A DNA stretch of 39,838 nucleotides from a virus (Duplodnaviria; Caudoviricetes), in the IMG/VR virus record IMGVR_UViG_3300033417_000028, positions 1 through 39,838 of that record; one strand, 5' to 3'. The notes beneath the pieces were generated by a model that saw only the letters and a list, made by a program, of their open reading frames with translations, was not told where the DNA came from and did not search any database. The position numbers were made by a program, and so were the translations under genes. The number at the start of each line of letters is the position of its first letter. The stretch's first letter is position 1. This document shows, piece after piece, positions 1,591 to 38,285 of the stretch.

Positions 1591-1614
1591 GCCAAGCCGC
1601 AAAACGTTAGTTGC
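1591..1614. mobile_element. attC-like half site A (truncated), left end of array 1
   Basis: GCCAAGCCGCAAAAC-GTTAGTTG has the same GCAAAAC-GTTAG right arm as site C; its core is complementary to CAACTAAC at 2381. Confidence 0.65.
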
Positions 1615-1787
1615 TATTTGTTTTTGTTCTTTTTTGCCCCACGCTCTTTGGTTTTTTCAAAACCATTAGGATTGGCTTCTCGTTCCAAAATAGACTGTGC
1701 CAAGTTTTTAAAATCCGTATTTTCATCAATCGCTCTTTTTGAAATAGTCTTTACACATTCATTCGATAAATCAAGTAACTTTTTCAT
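1614..1787 (-). CDS. Small hypothetical protein (57 aa, possibly ribbon-helix-helix-like), cassette 1
   Basis: MKKLLDLSNECVKTISKRAIDENTDFKNLAQSILEREAN..., read manually; ATG abuts the upstream stop. Confidence 0.6.
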   Translation of the reverse strand: MKKLLDLSNECVKTISKRAIDENTDFKNLAQSILEREANPNGFEKTKERGAKKNKNK

Positions 1788-2036
1788 TTATATATTGTAT
1801 TTGTGGTTGTGTAAATAATTTATTTCTTCTTCTGTCATTAAGTTGATTGTTTCTAATATCTTTTTCCAAGAGTCTTCTATTTTATTAAAATCATCAACAT
1901 TAAATTCTCCTTTGTTTTCAATTTGAGATAATATCGTCATCCATCTTTTTCCTTTAACTTCTCTTACAGCAATCATCCAATCAAAATGACAACTTCTACA
2001 CCAATTTGTAAAAACTTTCTTTTCTTTAGTTTTCAT
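1788..2036 (-). CDS. Hypothetical protein, cassette 1
   Basis: ORF with ATG at 2036, overlapping the upstream gene. Confidence 0.6.
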   Translation of the reverse strand: MKTKEKKVFTNWCRSCHFDWMIAVREVKGKRWMTILSQIENKGEFNVDDFNKIEDSWKKILETINLMTEEEINYLHNHKYNI

Positions 2037-2220
2037 ATCCAAAAATTAAAGGTAAATCAGTATTTTCCTTGTCATCAGAAAACATTCTACCTTGTTCTCT
2101 TGCATTTTTAATATCTTCCAACGCTTCTTTTTTAGAAATCTTTGTGAATGATGTTTCATAGGTGTCAAACTTCTTCATCCAAGTTCCTTTTGTTGTTCTT
2201 TTAATTGTGATTGTTTCCAT
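2026..2220 (-). CDS. Hypothetical protein, cassette 1 (METITIKRTT...)
   Basis: ATG at 2220 lies just downstream of a TATATTTG promoter box at 2240-2247. Confidence 0.65.
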   Translation of the reverse strand: METITIKRTTKGTWMKKFDTYETSFTKISKKEALEDIKNAREQGRMFSDDKENTDLPLIFGYEN

Positions 2221-2380
2221 TCTTATTAGTTTTGTTTTACAAATATATACTATATATACGAGATATACAACAAAAAGTTTCAAATATTTTATAACTCACT
2301 ATAAATCAATACAATTATTTTTCCTCCCCTTCTCAAAAAAGAACAAAAACAAACAGAATCAGCCCACAATCCCACCGCAC

Positions 2381-2446
2381 CAACTAACAAAGTATATAAA
2401 ACAACTTCGTACCTCAGTCGATTTTATATACTCAACCGTTATAAGC
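2381..2446. mobile_element. attC-like hairpin site B
   Basis: CAACTAAC-aa-AGTATATAAAA...TTTTATATACT-caacc-GTTATAAGC. Confidence 0.85.
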
Positions 2447-2462
2447 AATAAAATAAAATTGC

Positions 2463-2681
2463 CTACACACGCTCAATAATGAAGTAATCGTTTCCAATCG
2501 TAATTCCTTTTTTAAGGTTGCTTTTTTTGTTTGCAATATTTACAAAATGTTCGAGTTCATTCTTCTTTAAACTTTTATTCAAAGCCTTAAAAAAGCAATC
2601 TTCATCGACTTCCGTTAATTGTGCAGGTTTGCAAACTAATTTTCCATACACAACTGCATTTCCTATTTTAAATTTTTCCAT
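2463..2681 (-). CDS. Hypothetical protein, cassette 2
   Basis: 72-aa ORF filling the segment bounded by GTTATAAGC and GCTTATAAC. Confidence 0.7.
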   Translation of the reverse strand: MEKFKIGNAVVYGKLVCKPAQLTEVDEDCFFKALNKSLKKNELEHFVNIANKKSNLKKGITIGNDYFIIERV

Positions 2682-2701
2682 CGCTTTAATTTTATTTTAC
2701 A

Positions 2702-2779
2702 GCTTATAACAGCACATACACGCTATTTTGCCACGCTCAATCCAACGCCCACAGCGTGTATCTGCAAAACGTTAGGCTT
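2702..2779. mobile_element. attC-like hairpin site C
   Basis: GCTTATAAC-a-GCAcATACACGCT...AGCGTGTATcTGC-aaaac-GTTAGGCTT. Confidence 0.85.
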
Positions 2780-3005
2780 CATTTGCCTCCGCACCACAAT
2801 TCATACAAATCCTTACATATTGGTGTACAGATTTTCTGCCACACTTTTTAAATACAGTTGCATCTTGTCCTGCTTGCTGTTCTGGTGTGCAAGGATTGTC
2901 TTTCCTTTCATTTACTAAATCCTGATAATGTTCTGCTTGACTTTTCATCGGGTTTGTGTGCGTTCTCATATAAGCATCACCCCAACATTTTTCACAACTT
3001 GCCAT
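2772..3005 (-). CDS. Cys-rich (zinc-binding-like) small protein, cassette 3
   Basis: MASCEKCWGDA...CMNCG; its TAA stop lies inside the GCCTAAC core. Confidence 0.75.
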   Translation of the reverse strand: MASCEKCWGDAYMRTHTNPMKSQAEHYQDLVNERKDNPCTPEQQAGQDATVFKKCGRKSVHQYVRICMNCGAEANEA

Positions 3006-3038
3006 AATTTTTAAGTTTATCCCACCCGCAAAAAAAGA

Positions 3039-3334
3039 AAGCCTAACAATGTATAACAGCAATACTAACTTTCGTCTTCAAATTCAACTATCGGATGCAA
3101 AATAGATTTTGGTTCCTTTCGTTCCATTCCTTCTGCTATCACTTTTTTAATCATTCTGTTAAAAATCGTTGCACTTTTTTTTGTATAGTATGTCTCTCTG
3201 CTACCCAAGTGTGTACTTATCGCAAGTGCTACACAGTAAAGTTCTTTGTCTGTAAAATCTATTTTATTTCGTGCCATGATTCAAGTTTTAATGTTAATAA
3301 TCCGTACTGCTGTTATACTTTACCGTTAGCATTA
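3039..3334. mobile_element. attC-like site D with a ~240-bp gene-containing loop
   Basis: AAGCCTAAC-aat-GTATAACAGCAATAC (3051-3065) ... GTACTGCTGTTATAC (3304-3318)-tttacc-GTTAGCATTA. Confidence 0.75.
3065..3277 (-). CDS. Hypothetical protein nested in the loop of site D
   Basis: 70-aa ORF MARNKIDF... lying between the two arms. Confidence 0.65.
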   Translation of the reverse strand: MARNKIDFTDKELYCVALAISTHLGSRETYYTKKSATIFNRMIKKVIAEGMERKEPKSILHPIVEFEDES

Positions 3335-3335
3335 A

Positions 3336-3530
3336 TTACTTGCTACCGCACATTACACACACTTTTGCGTATTGATGCACTGTTTTTCTATTACACTTTT
3401 GGCAATTTTTTGCGTCTCTGCCAGCCTGTTCTTCATGTGTGCAAGGGTTGTCTTTTCTTTCTTCAATTAGTTCTTGGTACTTTTCTGCGTTTCCCCACGC
3501 ATCTTCCCAACATTTTTCACAACTTGGCAT
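3336..3530 (-). CDS. Cys-rich small protein, paralog of 2772-3005, cassette 4
   Basis: MPSCEKCWEDA...ERKDNPCT.E.QAG.DA...CVMCG; the longer ORF call runs through site E. Confidence 0.75.
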   Translation of the reverse strand: MPSCEKCWEDAWGNAEKYQELIEERKDNPCTHEEQAGRDAKNCQKCNRKTVHQYAKVCVMCGSK

Positions 3531-3557
3531 AATCTCAATTTTAGCCCGCAAGTAACA

Positions 3558-3659
3558 TAATGCTAACAAGCGGTATAGTTTATAAGCCTTTGAAAGTTTA
3601 TCGTTGGATTGAAGTGGTGTGGTAGGCTTACAAAACCATACCGCCAATCCGTTAGCTGC
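3558..3659. mobile_element. attC-like hairpin site E
   Basis: TAATGCTAAC-aa-GCGGTATAGTTTATAAGCCT...AGGCTTACAAAACCATACCGC-caatcc-GTTAGCTGC. Confidence 0.85.
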
Positions 3660-3685
3660 TATTTGTATTAAAATTTTCCCCACGC

Positions 3686-4042
3686 TCAGAACGGTAAATC
3701 ATTTTCAACCTCGTCAAATAATGGAGGTTGCCTTTTTCTTTCTTCCCAATATTTGCGATCTGCTTCTTCATGATCTCTTGTGTCCTTAATCCAGTCCCAT
3801 ATTTCCATCAGCTTCGGGAATCCTTTCAAATCATCTCTATCAATGTCGTCCGGGCATTCATAGCAAAAGTCGTCAAGTGATAGGGTTTTGTTGAATTTCC
3901 TATTCCACCTTTCCATTTGCTCCTTTTCTTTTGCCTCTTCTTCTTCAAATTCTCGTTGTGATCTGCACGGCAAACATTCACCATTAACAAAATCCTCGTC
4001 AAGTTGAGGTCCGTAATTTTCTTTACAATTCTTACATTCCAT
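3686..4042 (-). CDS. Hypothetical protein with CxxC motifs and acidic DLPF C-terminus
   Basis: 118-aa ORF. Confidence 0.7.
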   Translation of the reverse strand: MECKNCKENYGPQLDEDFVNGECLPCRSQREFEEEEAKEKEQMERWNRKFNKTLSLDDFCYECPDDIDRDDLKGFPKLMEIWDWIKDTRDHEEADRKYWEERKRQPPLFDEVENDLPF

Positions 4043-4226
4043 CGCTCAAAATTTTAATACTTTCATAATGTATTGTTTTAAAATTAGTTACTAAATAAAA
4101 ACCGAACGGCTTACACCGCATAAAACCAATAAAGGTTTCAGTGGGTAATTTCGGCATTGTAGCCCGTTCAAACTGTTGTGTATCTTGATAGTTCATCTCT
4201 CGCATTCCTTTACTGGTCTTATACAA
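4032..4226 (-). CDS. Hypothetical protein
   Basis: Short ORF overlapping the next start; start position uncertain. Confidence 0.4.
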   Translation of the reverse strand: MYKTSKGMREMNYQDTQQFERATMPKLPTETFIGFMRCKPFGFYLVTNFKTIHYESIKILSDGM

Positions 4227-4251
4227 AACGTTTTTTCTTTTTGGATTACGT

Positions 4252-4590
4252 TCATTTTAAATATCCTAATTTCCTTGCTTCTAACGGGTTTTTGTGAATC
4301 CAGTTGTGGCAGCCCCTACATACTGCCAGCCATGTTTTGACGTCTAAAAAATGCTTATCTCTGTCCTTTCCTGAGTAAGTGTGATGCACCTCAACCGACC
4401 TGCCATCTTGGTTTACTTGACACGTTTTGTGATTTTCCAAAAACACTTTTCTTAATGTCAAATATGCTTTATTTTCCTTGTCTCTTTTTGCGCTTACCTT
4501 TTTTATAGGAGTCCGTTTTTTCTTTTCAGATTTAACAGGTTTTGGGTCAGGCGAAAATTGCGAGCAGGTTAGTTTAATGTAGTTTGTCAT
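4252..4590 (-). CDS. HNH-family nuclease
   Basis: EVHH...WLAVCRGCHNWIH motif. Confidence 0.75.
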   Translation of the reverse strand: MTNYIKLTCSQFSPDPKPVKSEKKKRTPIKKVSAKRDKENKAYLTLRKVFLENHKTCQVNQDGRSVEVHHTYSGKDRDKHFLDVKTWLAVCRGCHNWIHKNPLEARKLGYLK

Positions 4591-4707
4591 GGTTGTTTAG
4601 CGATTTTCTTATTTTTTCTTTCATCAATTCAAGCTCTTTTATCTCGTTTTTAATTGTAGATATTGACTTGTCGATGCTTTCTTGTATTTGACCTAGTTCT
4701 TTCATGT

Positions 4708-5070
4708 TTATTTTTCATCAAATTTACTTTTATAAAAATTTATCACCCCCTCCATTTTGTGGCGATAATAAAGTTCCGAATCTTCGTACCCTTCGTTGTT
4801 TTGTTTCCAAAGCAAAAAGAACACTGCTTTTAATCGTTTTGACGGGCTTTTAATTGTTTCAAGCATATTAACGCTAACCTTATCAATTTCATCCATCATT
4901 TCGTTTGTGATGCCGTTTGTTGATATATAAATATTGGCTAAGTTGTTTTGCATAGAAAACAACTCGCCAGCGTCTTTATGGGATAGCTCCTGCGTCCCAA
5001 TAGTCAGTTTAACCGTTTTGTCTTTTCTTGTAGAAACGCCCTCTATTTGAGCCTGTATTATTAGTCCCAT
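4708..5070 (-). CDS. Hypothetical phage protein
   Basis: 120-aa ORF in the recombination region. Confidence 0.7.
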   Translation of the reverse strand: MGLIIQAQIEGVSTRKDKTVKLTIGTQELSHKDAGELFSMQNNLANIYISTNGITNEMMDEIDKVSVNMLETIKSPSKRLKAVFFLLWKQNNEGYEDSELYYRHKMEGVINFYKSKFDEK

Positions 5071-5778: not shown

Positions 5779-6690
5779 TTATTTTATGAACTTTAACGCC
5801 TCTTTTATTTCTGTTTGACCCCCCACCCCCTTTCCGGTTAAAGAATCAACTTGGCTGTCCTTAAGCATCTCAATTGCGCCTTGCGCTTGCTCTTTATTGT
5901 AAGTCGACATGTGTTTTTCTATAAACTCTTTCTTTTCCTCTGATATAGTAGAGGTGTGAAGAAGCCCATCAATGTAATTTAGTTGCTCGAATGTTGCCTG
6001 AAAGTCGTCATTTGTTAAATCAATAGCTTTTGCGAGTTTATCGAAATTTGATTTAGGCAAATATTTTACTATCCTTTTGATAACTGTTTTTCGAGCCATT
6101 TCATCAAACCAGTCATCCCAAATACAAGACTTTGCTTTTCCTCCCTTAAATGACTTGTAGCTTTCGGACGTGTCTCTTATTCCCTCCACCTCTTTAATAT
6201 CCATAACCTCCGTTTGCTTTGACCCATTAGCCAAAACAGCAACTGCATAAACACCAATCATTTTGCCCCTTACACCAAGTTTTGGCTTGTGTATAATAAT
6301 ATTTTCAGTGCCTAAATTCTGTTCAAATTCGTCGTTTTCGTAAACTAAATGAGCGTAACAGTTAACTATACTCCCGCTATCCGTAAGAAGTTTAATTAAA
6401 CCCTGATATGATGGCTCTAAGCAACATTCTATTGCACTTGAAGCACTATTATAGCGAGGAACTAAATACGCCAGCTTCTGAGCCGGATTAAGCGTCAGTC
6501 CTATTTGAGCCAAATTTAAAACACTTACCAATATACTATTTGGAGTTGACCTAGACAAGTAGGCGTTTTTCTGTAAATGCTGCAATGCAAAGGAACATTC
6601 CTTTTCAAAAGTTTTTTCATCAACCAACTCAGCAAACATTTTTTTAATCGGGGTAAAGTCTGCTTTGTTTTTAATCGGATTTGATTCCAT
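5779..6690 (-). CDS. recT: RecT/Bet-family single-strand annealing protein
   Basis: GLTLNP...AYLVP, SYQGLIKL, VYENDEF, W...DEMARKTVIKR..KYLP motifs. Confidence 0.9.
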   Translation of the reverse strand: MESNPIKNKADFTPIKKMFAELVDEKTFEKECSFALQHLQKNAYLSRSTPNSILVSVLNLAQIGLTLNPAQKLAYLVPRYNSASSAIECCLEPSYQGLIKLLTDSGSIVNCYAHLVYENDEFEQNLGTENIIIHKPKLGVRGKMIGVYAVAVLANGSKQTEVMDIKEVEGIRDTSESYKSFKGGKAKSCIWDDWFDEMARKTVIKRIVKYLPKSNFDKLAKAIDLTNDDFQATFEQLNYIDGLLHTSTISEEKKEFIEKHMSTYNKEQAQGAIEMLKDSQVDSLTGKGVGGQTEIKEALKFIK

Positions 6691-7131: not shown

Positions 7132-7714
7132 AATAAATTATTTCAAATTCTCCTTTCTTCATGTAAATCCGGTTGTTCTGCCTTTCGATCACCACCGCCG
7201 TGCCGTAGTTGTCTGTGACCGTGCCGTAGTTGCGTGTGACCGTGCCGTAGTTGCGTGTGACCGTGCCGTAGTTGTCTGTGACCGTGCCGGAGTTGCGTGT
7301 GACCGTGCCGTAGTTGTATGTGACCGTGCCGGAGTTGCGTGTGACCGTGCCGTAGTTGCGTGTGACCGTGCCGGAGTTGTATGTGACCGTGCCGTAGTTG
7401 TCTGTGACCGTGCCGGAGAGATTTATAGACAAAACGCTTTCGTCAATCACGCATTCTTTTTTTTCGATAAAAATATTATGATTATTTAAAATATTAGCAT
7501 CGTATTGCTCCAAAATCTCAACCGAAATCACATTATGGCTAACAGCCCATGAGCCATTTATACAGATTATTTTCCAAAAATCTGCTTCATTTTTTGAGTT
7601 CATTAATTTGCCGAACTCTTCATCATAAGGAGTGTTTTGGCTTCCGCATGCTTCTTTTTCTATACATTTCTGTATTATAATTTCTCGAATTTCTTCAAAA
7701 GATAATTTTTCCAT
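7124..7714 (-). CDS. Protein with ten GTVT[DYR]N[YS] heptad repeats (beta-solenoid-like)
   Basis: 196-aa ORF containing a 21-bp tandem repeat. Confidence 0.8.
   Translation of the reverse strand: MEKLSFEEIREIIIQKCIEKEACGSQNTPYDEEFGKLMNSKNEADFWKIICINGSWAVSHNVISVEILEQYDANILNNHNIFIEKKECVIDESVLSINLSGTVTDNYGTVTYNSGTVTRNYGTVTRNSGTVTYNYGTVTRNSGTVTDNYGTVTRNYGTVTRNYGTVTDNYGTAVVIERQNNRIYMKKGEFEIIYFD
7198..7417. repeat. 21-bp coding tandem repeat, 10 units plus a partial
   Basis: CCGTGCCG[T/G]AGTTG[TC/CG/TA]TGTGA units. Confidence 0.95.
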
Positions 7715-9781: not shown

Positions 9782-9821
9782 GTGTGTTTAATTTAATATA
9801 AATCAATTAGTTATGTTGCCT

Positions 9822-9847
9822 AGTTGCTCTTAGCGATATGTTAGGTG
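9822..9847. mobile_element. Array-terminal core site F (non-hairpin, attI-like candidate)
   Basis: AGTTGCTCTTAGCGATAT-GTTAGGTG; core complementary to CACCTAAC at 10704; 21/22 inverted copy at 11994-12015. Confidence 0.55.
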
Positions 9848-9892
9848 CAAGTTTTAAATAAATATTTTTTGCCCACGCTCCCATAAAATTTT

Positions 9893-10651
9893 TCAAATTT
9901 TTAAAAGGTTAATAGCCTTAAATATCTCAAATGCAACCTGTGGCACTATTGCGTTTCCGTATGCTTTAATGCTTTCGTTTCTCCATTTAGAAAAGGTAAT
10001 TCCGTCCAGTCTTTCGGAAAGCCCATCATTTCCGCTACCAAAGAAGGACGTAGCAATTGTTGGTTTGAAACCTCCAAGTTCAATAAAATCTTTATGGCTG
10101 TTTCCGTGTGTGGGCTGTTCCGTTTCCGTTCGCTTTGGCAATCCTTTTTGTCCCCTCTTGCTTTTGGAGTGTCCAATAAACCAAACTCTGTCCCTCCGAT
10201 GGGTAGCGTCTTTGGCACAAGCTGGAAGTATATACGTGAATACTTCGTAGCCCTCATTTTCCAAATCAGCTTGCACTTCGTTGAATACCATTCCCCCGTT
10301 CCAATTAACAATTCCGCTAACATTTTCCCCCACAACCCAACTTGGTTGAACCTCTCTAATTGCTCTAAGCATTTCCGGCCATAGATGGCGTTCATCCTCT
10401 TTACCTTTTCGCAATCCTGCTGCTGAATATGGTTGGCAGGGAAAACCTCCTGTAATAATGTCAATTGTGTTTGCATATTTTGTAAAATCTGTTTTCGTTA
10501 TATCTCCGTGTCCTTCTGCTTCCGGGAAATGGTATCTTAAAACCTTTTGCCCAAACTCATTCCATTCACACCAAGCAACTGTTTCCCATCCAGCCCATCT
10601 TGCAGCTAAACTAAAACCTCCTATACCTTCAAATAATCCTAAGTGTTTCAT
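9893..10651 (-). CDS. dcm: C5-cytosine DNA methyltransferase (carried as cassette 5)
   Basis: Motif I LFEGIGG, IV GGFPCQ, VI ENV, VIII RDRVW, X YGNAIVPQV. Confidence 0.93.
   Translation of the reverse strand: MKHLGLFEGIGGFSLAARWAGWETVAWCEWNEFGQKVLRYHFPEAEGHGDITKTDFTKYANTIDIITGGFPCQPYSAAGLRKGKEDERHLWPEMLRAIREVQPSWVVGENVSGIVNWNGGMVFNEVQADLENEGYEVFTYILPACAKDATHRRDRVWFIGHSKSKRGQKGLPKRTETEQPTHGNSHKDFIELGGFKPTIATSFFGSGNDGLSERLDGITFSKWRNESIKAYGNAIVPQVAFEIFKAINLLKI
9946..10476 (-). CDS. Alternative-frame ORF nested in the MTase; putative beta subunit carrying motif IX
   Basis: 176-codon open frame ending LVAEMMGFPKDWT, which resembles motif IX; start uncertain. Confidence 0.6.
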   Translation of the reverse strand: MQTQLTLLQEVFPANHIQQQDCEKVKRMNAIYGRKCLEQLERFNQVGLWGKMLAELLIGTGEWYSTKCKLIWKMRATKYSRIYFQLVPKTLPIGGTEFGLLDTPKARGDKKDCQSERKRNSPHTETAIKILLNLEVSNQQLLRPSLVAEMMGFPKDWTELPFLNGETKALKHTETQ

Positions 10652-10703
10652 AATTAAAATGCCAACGCACCCCTCTCAAAAAAAATATTTATTTAAAACC
10701 AGA

Positions 10704-10786
10704 CACCTAACATGGGCTATACAAAAGCTACTCCAACGCACAAGCCAACCCCTCGTAGCCTTCGCATAGCCCCGACCGTTAGCCAC
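10704..10786. mobile_element. attC-like hairpin site G
   Basis: CACCTAAC-at-GGGCTAT..GCTAC...GTAGC..ATAGCCC-cgacc-GTTAGCCAC. Confidence 0.85.
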
Positions 10787-11006
10787 AATTAGCCAACACA
10801 CGCTTTATGTAGTTGTCAAATACTTCATACGCTTCTCTCATTTCCTTTATGTCGTAGGAGAATTGAACTTGCCTTGCGTATTTGAATGCTTCTTTCAATT
10901 CAGCCATATATTTAGAAGTTACTATTGTCTTGCCTTCTTTCGGCTTGGGTATCGAGTCAAGTCCAGATATTACGCTATTTAGTATTTGTTCTTTATTTAA
11001 TGCCAT
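10779..11006 (-). CDS. Hypothetical protein, cassette 6
   Basis: 75 aa; TAA stop inside the GGCTAAC core. Confidence 0.75.
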   Translation of the reverse strand: MALNKEQILNSVISGLDSIPKPKEGKTIVTSKYMAELKEAFKYARQVQFSYDIKEMREAYEVFDNYIKRVLANCG

Positions 11007-11018
11007 CGCTCTTTAAAA

Positions 11019-11118
11019 GTGGCTAACACAAAATATAGTGAATAGCCGATTAAACATTTATTTTTCATAGCCAAGTTTTAGGTGTCGGCTACTCACCATA
11101 TTCAACACGTTATAAAAC
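11019..11118. mobile_element. attC-like hairpin site H
   Basis: GTGGCTAAC..AATATaGTGAaTAGCCGA...TCGGCTAcTCACcATATT-caacac-GTTATAAAAC. Confidence 0.85.
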
Positions 11119-11144
11119 ATTGTTTAATTAATAAAAATAAAAGC

Positions 11145-11663
11145 CTACGCACCGCTTTGAAGAACATTTTTCAAGGCTTCTATGTATTGTTTATAATTTC
11201 CATAATAAACGTGCTTTACCGCCTCATAAAAATCAATTATTTCATCGTGTGTTTTGAATAATTTTTTCGGCAAATGAAAAGTATATTCTCCTTCGTAATT
11301 CCATTCTATTTTTTCTCCTGTTTTCAAAAATTTGAATATACGATTAATTATTGTTCTTGATTTATCTGCGGAACAAGCAGAACCCTCTTTTTCAACAATT
11401 AGTTTCAAAAAATGATTTTCAACAAATCTTGAATGTAGTAGCAAAAAATCAACTTTATCATTTTTGCATATTTCACTTCTTATAAGCCCTTTTAAAAATT
11501 TAGAATGCGGATAAATAAGCGAAAAATAGAAACTCTCACAGTCATCTATTTTCATATTTCCACGTTCTTCAATCAACTTGCTATATAAGTCAATATTATC
11601 TTGCTCTATTGAGCCTAACATTCCGTTAAGCACTTCTTTTATTTTATCATTTTCTAATGCCAT
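11145..11663 (-). CDS. Hypothetical protein between sites H and I
   Basis: 172-aa AT-rich ORF with AAAGCGATG start context like other cassette genes. Confidence 0.75.
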   Translation of the reverse strand: MALENDKIKEVLNGMLGSIEQDNIDLYSKLIEERGNMKIDDCESFYFSLIYPHSKFLKGLIRSEICKNDKVDFLLLHSRFVENHFLKLIVEKEGSACSADKSRTIINRIFKFLKTGEKIEWNYEGEYTFHLPKKLFKTHDEIIDFYEAVKHVYYGNYKQYIEALKNVLQSGA

Positions 11664-11724
11664 CGCTTTTTTTTAATTTTTGTTAGTAGTTATTTATTCA
11701 GTTCATCGGTTAATCAATCCTACT

Positions 11725-11789
11725 GCTGGTAACACCACCTTTGCGCTACTTCGTTCCTCGCAGCAGCAAAGCTGTAACCGTTAGCAAAC
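11725..11789. mobile_element. attC-like hairpin site I
   Basis: GCTGGTAAC-ac-CAcCTTTGC...GCAAAGcTG-taacc-GTTAGCAAAC; loop CTTCGTTCCTC resembles site B loop CTTCGTACCTC. Confidence 0.8.
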
Positions 11790-11905
11790 ATTGCCTTACT
11801 TCTCGGTAATTTTGATGTTTTCGATACTAATACCATTACCATAACCGTTCATCTTGTTTTGTTTTTTTCAGATTAATCGGAATTTCCGATAAATCTAAAT
11901 CTCCA

Positions 11906-11998
11906 CAAATATAGGTTAAATATTAAACGTGTCAAGTATTTTTTATATATTTGTTGAAAATTAGGTTGATTGTTACATTTCGTTGTAGATATGTAACA
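11906..11998. promoter_or_regulatory. Divergent promoter region with palindromic operator
   Basis: TATATTTG on - (11906-11913) and + (11946-11953); TGTTACAT-N12-ATGTAACA at 11971-11998; coding strand switches here. Confidence 0.6.
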
Positions 11999-12053
11999 TA
12001 TCGCTAAGAGTAACTGATCAATGTAACTAACTGAAACCCAAAACGATAAACAC

Positions 12054-15177: not shown

Positions 15178-15236
15178 TGTTACATATTTTACAAATAATG
15201 TAACAAATACATTTTAAAAAATAATCGCTATATTTG
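15178..15236 (+). promoter_or_regulatory. Palindrome TGTTACAT-N12-ATGTAACA followed by a TATATTTG promoter box
   Basis: 15178-15205 repeats the 11971 palindrome; box at 15229-15236. Confidence 0.55.
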
Positions 15237-15349: not shown

Positions 15350-15964
15350 ATGGCAAAGCAAAAATCACCAACAAAGTTATCAGATCTAATCCCGGACGAT
15401 AAAAACTTCAACAAAGGGTCGGAGTTCGGAAGCTCTTTAATTGAAAAGTCGTTCAGAAAGTTCGGCGCTGGCCGGTCGATTCTTATTGATAAAAATAATC
15501 GGATAATCGCCGGGAATAAGTCGGTTGAAAATGCCGGAGCAATCGGAATGGAAGATGTTCAGATTGTTGAAAGTGATGGTAAACGAATAATTGCAGTAAA
15601 GCGAATAGATATTGACATAGACAGCCCAATAGGCAGGGAGATGGCTTTAGCTGACAATGCCAGCGCAAAGGCGAATATTGTTTTTGACGCTGAATTGTTG
15701 GAGGCAGAGTTAACAGATGCCGATGTAGAGGAGTGGGGGCTTGTAACGCATGACTTAATTGAGGAAGATGTAGACCTAAAGCAACACACAGACAGCGCAG
15801 AAAAGTATATGAACAACACCGTTAGGCAGATTCTTTTAGTTTTTGACAATGAAACGCACAAGGTAGTCGTAGAAAAGCTAAAGGCTATCGGAGAAAAATA
15901 TAACATTTTGGAAGATAATTCAGCAACAGTATTAAAGTTAATAGAATACTATGAAGGTAATTGA
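15350..15964 (+). CDS. ParB N-terminal-like domain protein
   Basis: LIPDDKNFNK...SFRKFGAGRSILIDKNNRIIAGN...ALADN. Confidence 0.8.
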   Translation: MAKQKSPTKLSDLIPDDKNFNKGSEFGSSLIEKSFRKFGAGRSILIDKNNRIIAGNKSVENAGAIGMEDVQIVESDGKRIIAVKRIDIDIDSPIGREMALADNASAKANIVFDAELLEAELTDADVEEWGLVTHDLIEEDVDLKQHTDSAEKYMNNTVRQILLVFDNETHKVVVEKLKAIGEKYNILEDNSATVLKLIEYYEGN

Positions 15965-16871
15965 CATCCCCCTATTAGATGTGGATTTGAGTAGCTTTAT
16001 GAAGCGCCTTGCAAAAGAGGTTGACTGCGATCACATCATAAACTATGACTGCCTGATAAAATCAGGAGGTGTCCCCAAAATACTTTATCTAAAGCTTACC
16101 GACACTGAAACTAAGTTCGTAAGGCAGGCCTGTAAAAATATTAAATACACAAAGGTTGAAAGGATTTCAACAGGATTAATTACAAAGGGTAAAAATAGAA
16201 CATTTGGGCTTCGTCCGAAAAGGGCCATGAGCCAATTTGCGAGTAGCTGCTCTGCCACGTCACTTGCTAAAGACAGCCCGATTGAACACAATATACTTTG
16301 CGACTTTATAAAAAAGTTAACTCCTTTTTACAAAGACTTTTTTCCGGGTGAGTACACGAAAAATAGCGAGGAGGTTAGTAAAAGAGTACTGCCGGAGTGG
16401 CAAATTGAAAACACCCCATTTACAAGTGGCATAGTGAACTATAACTCAGAGCTACAATACCACTACGACATTGGTCACTTTCATGGGGCGCTATCGGTAA
16501 TGCTTACACTTAAAAATGGAGTAAAAGGGGGGGGGCTGTGTTTTCCTGAGCTTGGAATAAATATTGATCTTGCCGATAATACAATTTTGCTAATGGACGG
16601 ACAGGAGATGATGCATGGAGTGACGCCAATAATAAAAAAGAAAAACAACGGCTATAGATATACTATTGTTTACTACTCATTGTTACAAATGTGGAGGTGT
16701 TTGCCAATAACAGAGGAGATAATCGCAACAAGAAAAATGAGAGCGAAAAGAGAGTCTAAAAGGGCTAATGGAGATGTAGGATCATTAAATATGGATACTA
16801 CGAAGGACGGCAAGTCCTTTTCGGAAAAGGCAACATTGGCGATTGCTAAGAAAGTAAACAAGATTAAGTGA
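15951..16871 (+). CDS. 2OG-Fe(II) dioxygenase, TET/JBP-like
   Basis: HYD (HxD), GGGLCFPE, HGVTP and RYTIVYY motifs; next to ParB and the terminases. Confidence 0.75.
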   Translation: MKVIDIPLLDVDLSSFMKRLAKEVDCDHIINYDCLIKSGGVPKILYLKLTDTETKFVRQACKNIKYTKVERISTGLITKGKNRTFGLRPKRAMSQFASSCSATSLAKDSPIEHNILCDFIKKLTPFYKDFFPGEYTKNSEEVSKRVLPEWQIENTPFTSGIVNYNSELQYHYDIGHFHGALSVMLTLKNGVKGGGLCFPELGINIDLADNTILLMDGQEMMHGVTPIIKKKNNGYRYTIVYYSLLQMWRCLPITEEIIATRKMRAKRESKRANGDVGSLNMDTTKDGKSFSEKATLAIAKKVNKIK

Positions 16872-17401: not shown

Positions 17402-18698
17402 TTTTTGGGAGTTCTGCTTATACGTTGATCCTGAGTTTTTCAAAAAAAGACTATTTTTAAAAAAAATCGCAAATGCGTTCATGCGCATTCACAATGGCGA
17501 GATCCGTCACCTTTCCGTTTCCCTTCCTCCTAGAGCCGGAAAGTCTTACATCACATCTTTATTTTGCGCTTGGACTCTTGCGAAGAGGCCTACAGAATCC
17601 GTCATGCGCAACACATGCACGGCTAGGCTATATGAGAAGTTTAGCTATGACGTGAGAAATATTATTCGAGAGCCTCCATTTAGGGAGGTGTTTTTTGATG
17701 TTGAGTTGGCGCCAGATAAGCAATCTGTTAACGGGTGGAGTCTAAGCACGTCAAGACAGGTAGGATATTTCGGGGCAGGACTAACCGGAACTATTATAGG
17801 ATTCGGGGCTACTGCATTGGCCATTACTGATGATATGTATAAGTCTCTCGAAGACGCATTAAGTGACAATATGAATGACAAGATACTTTCGTGGGAGGAG
17901 TCCGCTCATGAGTCTAGGATGGAGAAGAGGTGTCCAAGGATAGACATAGGTACTCGTTGGAGGAAGAACGATTTGATTGGTAGAAATATTGAACGAAAAG
18001 AATATGACGAAAGTATAATCGTTCCAGCGCTAGATCAGGATGGGAAATCATTCTGTGATGACGTAAAGTCTACCGCTGAATATTTGCGAATAAAAGATAA
18101 AACAGACTCTCAAATATGGGATGCGGAGTATATGCAAGAGCCGATCGAGGCAAAGGGTGTACTTTTTCCAAAGGGAGAACTCAGGTACTATAAGCCTGAT
18201 AGCGCATTATTATTCGAAACATCATTAGCTTATTGCGATGTTGCTGACCAAGGAGATGACAACCTAAGCGCACCTAATGGCCGGCACATTGGCAGCGATG
18301 TATATATCACCGATTGGCTGTTTTGTAAAGATAACAGCGATATCACCCTACCACTGTTAGCCCAAATGATAACCGAAAACAGCACAAAATATATTCGTGT
18401 AGAGTCTAACTCGATGGGGGCGATTTATTCCCGTGACCTAATGAAGATCACTAAAGCAGAGGTTTATCAAGCGCACTCGTCAGCCAACAAACACACACGT
18501 ATATTGATGGATGCTGGATTCGTGAAGAAGCACTTCGTGTTCCTTCATCCGGACTATCAGGATTCTGACTACAAGAGTGCGATGGATCAGATGTGCGGCT
18601 ACCTTAAGAATGGAAAGTCAAACAAAGACGATGCGCCGGATAGCATCAGCGGACTAGCAACATTTATCCGAACAATGTTTGAACATTTATATCGCTAA
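17334..18698 (+). CDS. terL: Terminase large subunit
   Basis: Walker A LPPRAGKS, Walker B ITDD, YMQEP, nuclease DVA...DDAPDS. Confidence 0.93.
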   Translation: MSNSKTLRKEIAKEARKELARRDFWEFCLYVDPEFFKKRLFLKKIANAFMRIHNGEIRHLSVSLPPRAGKSYITSLFCAWTLAKRPTESVMRNTCTARLYEKFSYDVRNIIREPPFREVFFDVELAPDKQSVNGWSLSTSRQVGYFGAGLTGTIIGFGATALAITDDMYKSLEDALSDNMNDKILSWEESAHESRMEKRCPRIDIGTRWRKNDLIGRNIERKEYDESIIVPALDQDGKSFCDDVKSTAEYLRIKDKTDSQIWDAEYMQEPIEAKGVLFPKGELRYYKPDSALLFETSLAYCDVADQGDDNLSAPNGRHIGSDVYITDWLFCKDNSDITLPLLAQMITENSTKYIRVESNSMGAIYSRDLMKITKAEVYQAHSSANKHTRILMDAGFVKKHFVFLHPDYQDSDYKSAMDQMCGYLKNGKSNKDDAPDSISGLATFIRTMFEHLYR

Positions 18699-19912
18699 AG
18701 GCTCAACCCGAAAGAATTGTTATAAATGTTTTTGACTTGATCTAGAGTTATGATCCCTTTTTCGTAAGCGTCTTTTACCGAGTTGAGCTGCTTGGTTATG
18801 ATGTCTGCCTCTTGTCCTTTATCATCTTGCAGCATGCTGATGTGAGAGTAGTCTAGCTCAACCCTTTGGTTGTCTGGGACTCTTAGGGCGTTACCAAGTG
18901 TTTGCGTGAAGGCATCGGCGGCAGGGAATATGGCGTCATTGTAAGTCTGTATGATTGCATTTTTAACATTCTCATACGTTTGATTCTTAGAGCTAAATAG
19001 GTTTATGTTTAAATTAAAATGATCGCAAATTGTTAATTTATTCGCATCTATCTGCTCCAGAAGCAGCAACTCTCCAGTTGGGTAGGTCATAGGTGTCCAA
19101 GCAACATCGCCCGATACTATAGAGACTCTTGATTGCCCGTCCTTAACCCCGTGCGTTTTGGAGTACTGCTTTTCTAATTTTTCTCTCTGTTCTGCTCCCA
19201 TCGGTAACGCTCCAGCGCTATCCTTTGTTTTGCCTGAAATCATCCCTATTGCCCCCTTCTCTCCGCTTATAATATTGAGATATTGATAAGCTAGCTTGGT
19301 GTTTGATAGTGGGAATTTGAGCGAAACAAGGGGCGACTTACCTATCACCAAGTCATCTAGGTCGTCGTGCTTACTCCATGCAATTTCATCAGATTTAAAC
19401 TCACGCTTTAGCTTCTCGTTTTCATATTTATACTTACTGACAACGCCGCTAATATCTATCTGATCGAATAGCTTACCGGTAAGGATAGGGCTCAGATATC
19501 GGGGAGATATGTTCATTATCGACGTTGGATATTTGGCCAGCTTCGAAGGACGATTAAAATACATGAACTGATTGCCATAGACGTCAAGTTGCTTACTATA
19601 ATTATTCATCCACTTGTTCTGAGTCTGCATCATATTTGGGCGCTCCAAAAGAGCCGTCAATTCTCCATCTTCGATTATTGCATTTGACTTAATGTCTCTA
19701 AGTCTAAATATTCCATTCGAGAACATATCTGCTTTCTTTGATATGACTTGATTTAATTCTGGTATTTCGTTATATAATCGGTAAGGCACTTTAGTATCGA
19801 CCCATACGGCTCCAAGGGGCTTGAAAATTACACCATTGTTAAAAAAACGTTTTTCTTCGTCTTGAAACCAGCTTCGGATGCCGTCGATAAGATTAGTCAC
19901 TATAGTCGCCAT
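18695..19912 (-). CDS. Portal protein (HK97-like), inverted orientation
   Basis: 405 aa; LLERPN, LDVYGNQF, GKSPL, ICDHF, TYENVKNA motifs. Confidence 0.88.
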   Translation of the reverse strand: MATIVTNLIDGIRSWFQDEEKRFFNNGVIFKPLGAVWVDTKVPYRLYNEIPELNQVISKKADMFSNGIFRLRDIKSNAIIEDGELTALLERPNMMQTQNKWMNNYSKQLDVYGNQFMYFNRPSKLAKYPTSIMNISPRYLSPILTGKLFDQIDISGVVSKYKYENEKLKREFKSDEIAWSKHDDLDDLVIGKSPLVSLKFPLSNTKLAYQYLNIISGEKGAIGMISGKTKDSAGALPMGAEQREKLEKQYSKTHGVKDGQSRVSIVSGDVAWTPMTYPTGELLLLEQIDANKLTICDHFNLNINLFSSKNQTYENVKNAIIQTYNDAIFPAADAFTQTLGNALRVPDNQRVELDYSHISMLQDDKGQEADIITKQLNSVKDAYEKGIITLDQVKNIYNNSFGLSL

Positions 19913-35366: not shown

Positions 35367-38285
35367 ATGAAAAAAATACTATTATTATCGCTGTTATTAT
35401 TGGCCGAAATTGGCTACTCTCAAAGACAAGTACCAAGGGGTGGTGACGCAGGGCAAACGTTAGAGGTAGGCTCTGACGGTTATAGCTTGGAGTGGGGGAC
35501 TCCCTTTTCAGGGTGGTCATTGACGGGGAATGACACGATAGACTCAACAGCTAACTTCATAGGCACTTTAGACGACAACCCATTTATTATTCGAACGAAT
35601 GACACCGAAAAGATAAGGGTAATGTCAGGGGGTAATATTGGCATAGGCACTCCTTCGCCTACGAATGATTTAAGTTTTGGCAACTCCAAGGATAGGACTA
35701 TATGGGTAGAAAGCACGGATTCATTAACCAATGGCAGAGGTCTCAGCATTATGGCTGGAAGTACTTCGGAAGGTGGAAGCGCTGGTGACTTCATTGCTCT
35801 CGGACAAACAAGTAGGAGTTGGATTGGCATGGCTGCTGCGCCTAATGGCAACGTGTATGCTTGTGTTTCGGGTGGCGACATCTACATGCAGACTGGCGGC
35901 GCTGGTGACTTCATTGCTCTCGGACAAACAAGTAGGAGTTGGCATGGCATGGCTGCTGCGCCTAATGGTGATGTGTATGCTTGTGTTTTTGGCGGCGACA
36001 TATACATGCAAACGGGCGGCGCTGGTGACTTCATTGCTCTCGGACAAACAAGTAGGAATTGGACTGGCATGGCTGCTGCGCCTAATGGTGATGTGTATGC
36101 TTGTGTTGTTTTTGGCGACATCTACATGCAAACGGGCGGCGCTGGTGACTTCATTGCTCTCGGACAAACAAGTAGGGATTGGTTTGGCATGGCTGCTGCG
36201 CCTAATGGCAACGTGTATGCTTGTGTTTCGGGTGGCGACATCTACATGCAGACTGGCGGCGCTGGTGACTTCATTGCTCTCGGACAAACAAGTAGGAATT
36301 GGATTGGCATGGCTGCTGCGCCTAATGGTGATGTATATGCCCCCATCATTGCTGGCGACATATACATGCAAACGGGCGGCGCTGGTGACTTCATTGCTCT
36401 CGGACAAACAAGTAGGAATTGGCGAGGCATGGCCGCTGCGCCTAATGGTGATGTATATGCCCCCGTCGTTGCTGGCGACATATACATTCAAGAAGCATTC
36501 AACAAATCTGGCGGCAACTTAACATTGTCAGCAGGGCGAAGCAATGGTGCTGGCGAATCCAATATTTACTTCCAAACTTCACCACCATCGACGGCTGGCG
36601 ATACCTCTTTGAACGCCCTCTACACGCAGATGACAATAGTAGGTAGTGGAAATGTAGGCATAGGGACGACATCGCCAACCGAAAAACTAGAAGTAGTAGG
36701 AGGAGTAAAATCAGACTCTATAATTATTGGAGATACAAAAATGCTGGAGAGCAGCATTACTGCTGACTCATTTATGATAGTGTCTTCGAAAAGTTATTTG
36801 TCTGAAACGCCTCCCGATAATGACAGTAGCAATAAGATAGCTACAACTGGATATGTTGACAGAACTGCTCAGGGTATTTACGACTCATTAACGCTTACCC
36901 CCCCTTACTATGGCGATCAAATTGATTGGGCTGGTACGGGCAATAACTTTATTACGACCGATGTATCTTTACAAATAAAAACAGATAAAACGACAACAAA
37001 TTCCAATATAAAAATTGATTCGGCAACAATTAATTCGAACATTACTAAAGGGGTGCGAGAGTCTTACATTGACCACAAGTTTGACCGGATAACAATATAT
37101 CCGGACTCTATTTTAGCAATTGGAGGAGACGTGTTTAACGCATCTACAACATCCGGATTAACAGGTCTCTACTACGACGATAATGTAGGCGCTCAGGTTT
37201 TTGGGGATCAGATTCAATTTTTTACTAACAGTTTTAATGCTGAGATGCACATCGTGGATAGCGATGGTTCGATCAAGGTTAGAGCCGACACAGTTCAGAT
37301 AGACATCCCATCCAAGGGCGATGGTAAGGTGCTTACATCTGATAGCGACGGGGGTGCTTCTTGGCAGGATCCTGTTCTTTATACTCCACCCTATTACGAG
37401 GATAGCATTTCTTATTCTGGCGATGCTACTGTGTCTGCCGATGATTTTACTTTAGAGACTGATAATTTCACTTTAGAGGCTGTGGACGACATTAGTATGT
37501 ATGCTGCCGACACATTCAACATTGTTGGTGATGCTGATCTTTATTTATATGGTTCATTAGGTGTTAGAATAAATACTCCTATAGGTGCTATGACTATTAC
37601 GTCATACACAAATATGAGTTTGAGTACTTCGCAAGGTGATTTAAACTTATCTACAGGGAATATTCTCAATGTTACCGCAGATTCTTTTTTACTTACCAAT
37701 GTTCCTACACCTCCTTTAGGGGATAGTACAAAAAAGGTGGCAACAACCGCATACGTGGACAGGGCGACGGCTACCGCAACATATCCAACATCATGGTCAT
37801 TAACAAGCACCATCACAATAGGGGCTGTAACCACCCCTCCAACAAAAGCGACAACGGTAGAAAATGATTTTGTTAGGTATAGGACTAAAGAGCCTGCGAT
37901 AGGTTCTAATACGGAATTGATTGAGGTTGATTATATGTACTCTTCATCTTCTAGTGCAGGAGCAGCAGGAGGAAGTGGTAACTATTTATTTGAATTGCCA
38001 AACGGATATGAGTTCAACTCTACTGAACATCCTGTTTATACAGGAACTACAGACCTTTCTGGAGGCAGTACTTCAATCTACGCTATCGACAGAGGCAAGC
38101 CACAAGGGATGATTTTTGGAGATGGGTTCTATGATTTGGTGCTAATAGTTCCTTACGATGCGACCCATTTTAGAATTATATCATTGGGCGGCAATGCCTC
38201 CGACGAGTGGGTGGGTAGCGGCTGGTATCCAATTACACAAAACACGAAAGTAATGTCTTTTAAATTTACATTTTATAAACAATAA
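35367..38285 (+). CDS. Tail fibre/adhesin-like protein with signal peptide and six 40-aa repeats
   Basis: MKKILLLSLLLLAEIGYSQ; GN(I/V)GIGT.SP, GKVLTSD..G.ASW and K(I/V)ATT(G/A)YVD fibre motifs. Confidence 0.75.
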   Translation: MKKILLLSLLLLAEIGYSQRQVPRGGDAGQTLEVGSDGYSLEWGTPFSGWSLTGNDTIDSTANFIGTLDDNPFIIRTNDTEKIRVMSGGNIGIGTPSPTNDLSFGNSKDRTIWVESTDSLTNGRGLSIMAGSTSEGGSAGDFIALGQTSRSWIGMAAAPNGNVYACVSGGDIYMQTGGAGDFIALGQTSRSWHGMAAAPNGDVYACVFGGDIYMQTGGAGDFIALGQTSRNWTGMAAAPNGDVYACVVFGDIYMQTGGAGDFIALGQTSRDWFGMAAAPNGNVYACVSGGDIYMQTGGAGDFIALGQTSRNWIGMAAAPNGDVYAPIIAGDIYMQTGGAGDFIALGQTSRNWRGMAAAPNGDVYAPVVAGDIYIQEAFNKSGGNLTLSAGRSNGAGESNIYFQTSPPSTAGDTSLNALYTQMTIVGSGNVGIGTTSPTEKLEVVGGVKSDSIIIGDTKMLESSITADSFMIVSSKSYLSETPPDNDSSNKIATTGYVDRTAQGIYDSLTLTPPYYGDQIDWAGTGNNFITTDVSLQIKTDKTTTNSNIKIDSATINSNITKGVRESYIDHKFDRITIYPDSILAIGGDVFNASTTSGLTGLYYDDNVGAQVFGDQIQFFTNSFNAEMHIVDSDGSIKVRADTVQIDIPSKGDGKVLTSDSDGGASWQDPVLYTPPYYEDSISYSGDATVSADDFTLETDNFTLEAVDDISMYAADTFNIVGDADLYLYGSLGVRINTPIGAMTITSYTNMSLSTSQGDLNLSTGNILNVTADSFLLTNVPTPPLGDSTKKVATTAYVDRATATATYPTSWSLTSTITIGAVTTPPTKATTVENDFVRYRTKEPAIGSNTELIEVDYMYSSSSSAGAAGGSGNYLFELPNGYEFNSTEHPVYTGTTDLSGGSTSIYAIDRGKPQGMIFGDGFYDLVLIVPYDATHFRIISLGGNASDEWVGSGWYPITQNTKVMSFKFTFYKQ
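35781..36488 (+). repeat. 120-bp tandem repeat x6 (likely beta-propeller blades)
   Basis: Units start at 35781, 35901, 36021, 36141, 36261 and 36381. Confidence 0.95.

Follow-up and report, generated by a model that had tools for sequence, protein, structure and literature searches.

Background

Canonical attC sites of integrons carry an extrahelical base in the L box. The described systems closest to the locus analyzed here were as follows: (i) the phage CALINs with methylases of Qi et al. 2023 (PMC9892861), for which an anti-restriction role was proposed, and among which attC1 of phage P12002L gave no recombinants with IntI1 and attC2 recombined; (ii) cassette insertion at attG, shown for IntI1-3 in Escherichia coli by Loot et al. 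(bioRxiv 10.1101/2022.09.11.507474); (iii) the reverse integron of Treponema denticola (PMC4909258); and (iv) the methylase M.EcoHK31I, in which an alternative frame of the alpha gene encodes the whole of a motif-IX beta chain (PMC2836561). The IntI-specific domain was described in PMC9668308, and few complete integrons were reported in Bacteroidetes in the available text on IntegronFinder 2. Phage attC clusters with methylases are already known, going by the available text of PMC9892861, and they include one site of the class described below, which was called in P12002L by HattCI.

General features of the phage genome

The window (the whole stretch of DNA that was analyzed, 39,838 nucleotides) was a complete phage genome of 39.8 kb with terminal repeats of 127 bases. 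Profile searches found terminase, portal, capsid, RecT (5779-6690), and helicase genes, and for a tyrosine recombinase there was no PF00589 match anywhere in the complete genome. The host of the phage is probably a member of Bacteroidota, because the genome displayed TAnnTTTG boxes, had DNA in common with Cellulophaga phage phi18:3, and carried the same hairpin class as Bacteroidota chromosomes. Two arrays were present: the first at about 1600-4230, and the second (sites F to I), treated below, at the start of a leftward operon. The second array is probably an integron-like cassette row within this operon, the genes of which travel with the hairpin upstream of them and are likely moved in trans by an IntI-related short recombinase.

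The first array (1606-4230) was composed of four segments with end matches of 8-10 bases; one of its sites (about 3045-3327) harbored a 70-aa ORF within the loop, and two adjacent cassettes contained paralogous small Cys-rich genes (repeat D5). Elsewhere, the portal gene (18695-19912) lay on the strand opposite to that of the surrounding terminase and capsid genes, and tandem repeats were found within genes at 7156-7470 (21-base units, 7-aa repeat) and at 35659-36558 (120-base units, 40-aa repeat in a 982-aa tail-region protein).

Structure of the second array

Site F (9840..9847, plus strand), a bare core GTTAGGTG for which folding gave no hairpin, marked the array's 5' end as read along the inferred top strand. 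It was followed by (i) the 938-bp cassette 1 (9841..10778, plus strand), composed of the methylase gene and site G (10709..10780, minus strand); (ii) the 331-bp cassette 2 (10779..11109, plus strand), composed of a 75-aa gene and site H (11025..11111, minus strand); and (iii) the 671-bp segment 3 (11110..11780, plus strand), composed of a 172-aa gene and site I (11731..11782, minus strand), with non-complementary ends and a stray core GTTAGTAG at 11682-11689 inside it. G and H were attC-like hairpins, with the minus strand of G as the folding strand, and I was a short, weaker hairpin. The right flank (11781..11853, minus strand), which contained an 18-codon ORF and had a cassette-end-like end (rank 8 of 325 TAAC sites), is possibly the remnant of a further cassette.

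The initial annotation had delimited the methylase and the 75-aa gene by such cores, and both pairs were recovered: GTTAGGTG at 9840 and CACCTAAC at 10704-10711 around the methylase (8 complementary bases), and GTTAGCCAC at 10778 and GTGGCTAAC at 11019-11027 around the 75-aa gene (9 complementary bases), the stop codon of which fell, as had been noted, within the core (10779-10781). The mismatch reported for the ends of the H-I segment was likewise seen, with GTTATAAAAC at 11109 and GCTGGTAAC at 11725-11733 sharing 4 bases only. Among 26,406 random GTTA/TAAC pairs in the window, at least 8 bases matched in 0.56% and at least 9 bases in 0.19%. Complementary cores (GTTRRRY/RYYYAAC type) bounded two of the three segments of the second array and six of eight across both arrays (8-10 bases); the unmatched ends of the other two of the eight window segments count against the cassette reading. 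Over 29 pairs of adjacent sites, four of them from the window, ends matched by a mean of 4.8 extra bases versus 1.8 in 2000 permutations (maximum 2.7).

The common architecture claimed for the four sites stood for the strong hairpins G and H and for the bare core F, and I displayed a weak hairpin only. G and H each formed an 18-pair stem on the minus strand (z -3.1, with 0 of 200 shuffles as low, and z -3.0, with 2 of 200, respectively), and the fold of I was weak (z -1.4, 17 of 200). The predicted stems of G and H were unbroken, with not one bulged base, and their asymmetry was that of the spacer beside the core. The minus strand folded lower than the plus strand in G, H, and I, as did the expected strand in 49 of 66 sites of other loci. 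A hairpin scanner tuned on the window's own sites gave, at a threshold of 8.5, five sites in the window, each of which folded on the minus strand, versus a mean of 0.17 (maximum 1) in 30 shuffles; site I scored 8.0 and fell under the threshold. A covariance model of the sites, built without base pairs, did not recover G and I.

Cassette 2 and segment 3

The 75-aa orphan gene (10779..11006, minus strand) matched neither a Pfam nor an NCBIfam family at E 0.01. A second phage (L175) was 91.6% identical along a 344-base stretch that ran from the AAC of H to the AAC of G, and the sequences on either side of it were unrelated; because the 75-aa gene and hairpin H are found together there, core to core, we assign site H to the 75-aa gene and site G to the methylase. 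The first 45 bases of site H were identical in phi18:3. In that phage, gp106 (L081:7823-8123) shared the ends of the 75-aa cassette and a large part of hairpin H but had a different gene body.

The 172-aa gene (11145..11663, minus strand) encoded a full-length protein with no assigned function (phrog_32020, E 2.7e-10; 52 homologues). The H-I segment had been read as a fused or deleted cassette. A fusion inside the gene was ruled out, since the 52 homologues covered 86-99% of the protein, and the lesion could therefore be placed within the 63 bases from site I to the start codon. The stray core at 11682 suggests that a hairpin was lost from the leader of this gene. Searches for the 172-aa gene locus found none in viral contigs, cultured phages, or 401 genomes, the last search being one without a positive control. 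A collapsed site with cores just 4 bases apart was observed at L022:4840-4880 and offers a model for hairpin loss.

Putative docking core, flanks, and promoter-like site

The left flank of the docking point (9803..9843, plus strand) was an 83% inverted copy of 11994-12034, and the likeness stopped at the GTTA of core F; at the GTT of the inverted copy there was no cassette. In P12002L, a 68-base docking flank was present twice (L149:29172-29239 and 37198-37265), each copy being followed by an array; one copy corresponded to the published attC2, which was a bare docking core in this analysis. The likeness of site F to attI was weak: on an attI profile, for which one training row was out of register, F came 16th of 1463, and a comparison by alignment was confounded by A-rich start regions. 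F may be an attG-type target or a worn attI.

A leftward promoter-like site (11906..11935, minus strand) was good by two consensus types: TATATTTG with TTG 19 bases upstream, and also TTGACA-16-TATATT; the promoter consensus used was that given in PMC6847099. The initial annotation had compared this box with an integron Pc. The box itself was confirmed, with TATATTTG on the minus strand at 11906-11913 as one of 39 TAnnTTTG matches in the genome, but the Pc placement was ruled out, since the box lay at the array end far from bare core F and was half of a divergent pair. Its rightward twin, TATATTTG at 11946, belonged to a region (11946..12034, plus strand) that also contained a palindrome and the inverted F-flank copy. 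The same operator-like palindrome, TGTTACAT-N12-ATGTAACA, was observed at 11971-11998 and 15178-15205, ahead of two gene blocks.

The methylase cassette

Cassette 1 encoded the 252-aa alpha chain of a C5 cytosine methyltransferase (9893..10651, minus strand; PF00145, E 1.5e-45; TIGR00675 above the cut-off), in which the catalytic PCQ and ENV aligned to M.HhaI and the C5 motifs I, IV, VI, and VIII were present. Nested within the gene was a +1-frame ORF of 176 aa (9946..10476, minus strand), which the initial annotation had missed; with its motif-IX-like MMGFP and a phrog_1008 match, it is likely the beta chain, and the methylase is predicted to be a two-chain gene of the M.EcoHK31I type. In 53 of 58 distinct homologues, the +1 frame stayed open for at least 150 aa and contained a GFP motif; the length of the ORF was reached in 1 of 2000 codon shuffles. 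The predicted alpha-beta complex scored 0.86 versus 0.00 for the best control, the mark used being one that 51 of 78 solved complexes attain, as do 2 of 108 mismatched pairs; the runs agreed in at least 87% of contacts, and the partner pLDDT was at least 69. The modeled complex is taken to show likeness to solved one-chain methylases, not binding, because the halves of a split enzyme tend to pass through their resemblance to such methylases.

The methylase presumably marks phage DNA against host restriction. In the whole genome, CGCG had 3 occurrences (0.05 of expectation), GGCC was at 0.42 of expectation, and GATC was at 0.57; this rarity is likely restriction-site avoidance, the low CGCG count being as expected under restriction pressure. 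Beside the terminase, at 15350-16871, lay a ParB-like gene and a Tet/JBP-family oxygenase (PF12851, E 1.4e-15), and the latter could further modify the base made by the cassette methylase.

A search with the cassette-1 gene-3' end pattern matched four viral contigs, and the likeness ended right past the core in all four; likeness up to the core was built into this pattern, and the upstream end was outside it. The matching upstream end GTTAGGTGTCTG was present in three of the four and was not found within the 845 bases of the remaining one (L171). Between them, L172, L173, and L174 carried three other genes inside the cassette-1 ends: methylases of phrog_56 and phrog_67 and a Mom-like gene of phrog_1384. 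The earlier suggestion that anti-restriction functions are swapped as cassettes was thus borne out as far as DNA-modifying genes exchanged between the same cassette ends in these three contigs, and phages likely swap anti-restriction genes using a borrowed recombinase; the search, seeded with one cassette end, gives no measure of how common DNA-modifying cargo is. The gene-3' end stood bare in L172, whereas hairpins came after it in L173 and L174, and F as merely a deleted hairpin was ruled out on this ground.

The initial annotation had also called for a search for methylase homologues flanked by such sites elsewhere. Of 339 homologue loci, 80 were kept and 74 were assessable; four of the 74 (L022, L041, L055, and L076) were cassettes, in which the ends matched over 9-10 bases and a hairpin lay upstream of the gene, and the remaining 70 contained ordinary phage genes without cores, which counts against the cassette reading. 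On a quick tree, the five cassette-borne methylases were dispersed, and well-supported branches forced at least three changes, which suggests repeated capture of the methylase into cassettes. The L041 cassette (3860-4841) and L011, which had no cores (4001-4840), shared 92.5% identity over 797 bases, covering the coding sequence only. The reading frame of the L041 cassette began inside the hairpin.

Searches with the 100-aa gene left of the array, the F-flank motif, and the helicase yielded no relative of the phage in which site F was empty, nor any with or without the methylase: the F-flank motif matched 0 viral contigs and, in metagenomes, only the window's own record, and the helicase search gave one distant phage, which carried its own array. 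No core joints were found among the short low-depth contigs listed from one run (X1), which may not be independent; one 399-base contig of this run was identical to 10645-11043.

Breakpoints in cultured phages

P12002L contained methylase cassettes of this hairpin class, and its attC1 was recovered by the hairpin scan as a site of the class, with a 9-base end match around the methylase. In the comparison of the Polaribacter phages P12002L and P12002S, a 5,044-base block (99.7%) ended exactly at a GTT core with different cassettes beyond, and a methylase cassette (98.6%) had a different neighbor from its core on. A 1.09-kb indel between them had its crossover 6-10 bases inside a hairpin arm, not at GTT, and microhomology recombination therefore also acts. 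In the comparison of phi18:3 with three relatives, the left breakpoint lay about 30 bases left of the core, and the right breakpoint of phi46:3 lay at the core.

Such breakpoints bear on an alternative in which a recombinase originally placed the cassettes but homologous recombination (RecT), acting via their conserved ends and hairpin arms, now accounts for most of the swapping. The RecT gene of the phage, the different genes within the same ends, the P12002 crossover in a hairpin arm, the hybrid H-I segment, and the methylase halves, which were mosaic among homologues (P0004), all speak for it, but breakpoints were exact to the core where the flanking hairpins were unrelated, with just 3-4 shared bases there. 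We consider this alternative unlikely, and it can hold alongside the preferred reading of a recombinase-moved cassette row.

Polarity of genes relative to sites

As read here, the phage cassettes mirror those of integrons, in that each gene travels with the hairpin before its start; this antisense polarity was missed by the initial annotation. It was backed by three independent facts: (i) the bare core F lay downstream of the array's genes; (ii) bacterial cassettes lay downstream of a recombinase; and (iii) L175 shared the gene together with its hairpin. The gene-bearing minus strand folded lower, as the bottom strand does.

In Bacteroidota chromosomes, the arrays began at a bare core, and the polarity was fixed because 34 of 35 matched cassettes lay downstream of the recombinase with the top strand being the recombinase strand. 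Matched cassettes numbered 35 in 15 of 20 recombinase-adjacent Bacteroidota loci versus 0 in 20 control stretches, taken from 17 of those genomes. The bacterial matched cassettes (36 of 43 sites, with 7 unmatched) had 30 genes in sense and 6 in antisense. Among the phage-type matched cassettes, 36 of 38 were antisense (47 sites, 9 unmatched), and 35 of 35 were so after three rows were dropped, namely two sense ones (wrong-strand double calls) and one antisense one (site I, a chance match); these 35 included five from the window and four from two genome-bin contigs presumed to be prophage. No description of the antisense polarity or of the short recombinase (see below) was found in the open-access text that was consulted.

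The short recombinase

In L022, the array ended at a bare core 52 bases before a gene for a 280-aa tyrosine recombinase. This enzyme aligned with VchIntIA on both sides of a gap, in which it had 23 versus 66 residues, so that about 43 residues were lacking, and it scored 174 versus the TIGR02249 cut-off of 265. The spacing from KGxKxR to HxLRH was 54-63 residues in 37 of 37 array-side recombinases, and the 30 best phylum relatives all had this short spacing. Judged by their sequences, the array-linked recombinases are without the IntI-specific domain. On phage-like contigs, a bare core was located about 41-63 bases before the start of the short recombinase in 8 of 8 cases, and none was seen by eye before the start of an XerD-like control. 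Recombinase relatives (E <= 1e-55) were found in 72 of 201 sampled genomes of the Bacteroidota phylum, and cultured phages gave no match at E 1e-40. From linkage only, we infer that the short recombinase acts on the hairpins.

These enzymes weigh on a second alternative, in which the array would consist of ordinary CALIN integron cassettes with a true IntI and the usual gene orientation. GTT/AAC cores, folded sites, and a stop codon within the core agree with it, as do the methylase CALINs described in phages (PMC9892861); however, the gene travels with its upstream hairpin, the bare core lies downstream of the genes, the array-side recombinases are short in 37 of 37 (54-63 residues from KGxKxR to HxLRH, about 43 fewer than VchIntIA), and attC1 of P12002L failed with IntI1 (PMC9892861). 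This alternative is largely refuted, and we regard it as very unlikely.

Least probable of all is an RNA role as the main one, in which the hairpins before early genes would serve mRNA processing, stability, or termination and the core matches would be by-products. In its favor, the strand that folds in this phage is that of the mRNA, and the stems have 18 pairs. Against it, the complementary cores are 250-900 bases apart, across the gene, the same hairpins in bacteria fold on the strand opposite to the mRNA, beside the recombinase, and an Rfam search of the hairpins gave no family. The hairpins may have a secondary RNA role.

Proposed mechanism and implications

Under the preferred reading, a cassette row moved in trans, the recombinase would be supplied by the host or another phage, and the folded minus strand would be the recombination substrate. 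Cassettes would enter at bare core F and be read from the promoter at 11906; because of these two placements, the methylase at F would be the latest entry and the one farthest from the promoter. Weighing against this reading are the failure to find an empty-F relative or, in the low-depth run, a joint at a core; the P12002 crossover in a hairpin arm and the phi18:3 left breakpoint away from the core; the weak attI likeness of F; the lack of recombinants with IntI1 for the one site of this class that was assayed (PMC9892861); and RecT, which could exchange genes via shared ends with no integrase at all.

More tentatively, Bacteroidota and their phages might share a new integron-like system, with a recombinase lacking the IntI domain and with host and phage gene pools separated by polarity. 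Phages would mint cassettes from their own genes, one methylase being 92% identical in native and cassette form, reuse one shell for rotating DNA-modifying genes, and borrow the recombinase in trans. This wider reading is about as likely as not. If it is true, (i) cassettes from the host would not be expressed within a phage array, nor phage cassettes within a host array; (ii) phages would gain a site-specific way to alter their DNA-modification repertoire; (iii) hairpin-type recombination would be possible without the IntI-specific domain; and (iv) integron surveys would overlook a common Bacteroidota system, given a recombinase relative in 72 of 201 sampled genomes. With native and packaged forms of one gene at hand, the origin of cassettes becomes testable, and the cultured phages (P12002L/S and phi18:3) together with the short enzymes make the test simple.

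Comparison with known systems

The locus resembled the phage CALINs of PMC9892861, in which lytic phages carry groups of attC-like sites with methyltransferase genes as cargo but no integrase, and it descriptively fell under the CALIN definition (at least two attC sites without intI) if G, H, and I are counted as attC. In the available text of that paper, the clusters were read as IntI attC sites with divergent directions, whereas here the genes were antisense and another recombinase was tied to the class.

As in attG insertion (10.1101/2022.09.11.507474, available text), cassettes lay away from an integrase, and F fitted a minimal GWT target; in contrast, another recombinase is concerned here, and F may be a reused docking site because it has an inverted copy. 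In the reverse integron of Treponema denticola, as presented in PMC4909258, the integrase and the cassette genes point the same way, which also holds for the Bacteroidota chromosomal arrays, but genes in T. denticola end at their own attC; in the phage arrays, unlike those of T. denticola, genes start beside or inside the hairpin and the array is upstream of the recombinase. Motif IX lay on a nested-frame chain here as in M.EcoHK31I (PMC2836561, available text), but the phage gene was an orphan with no neighboring endonuclease in the cassette, and its second chain is a predicted one.

The array and classical integrons shared the GTT crossover core, complementary ends, one gene per cassette, tandem arrays, a bare end core, and one strand that folds better. 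They differed as follows: (i) no IntI was present, and the associated recombinase was without the IntI-specific domain as described in PMC9668308; (ii) the genes were antisense, not on the top strand before their own attC; (iii) the promoter was at the end far from the docking core, with no attI having Pc upstream; and (iv) the stems of G and H were without a bulged base and so had no L-box extrahelical base. By these four tested features, the cassettes, as far as their sequences tell, are integron-array-like but outside the integron family.
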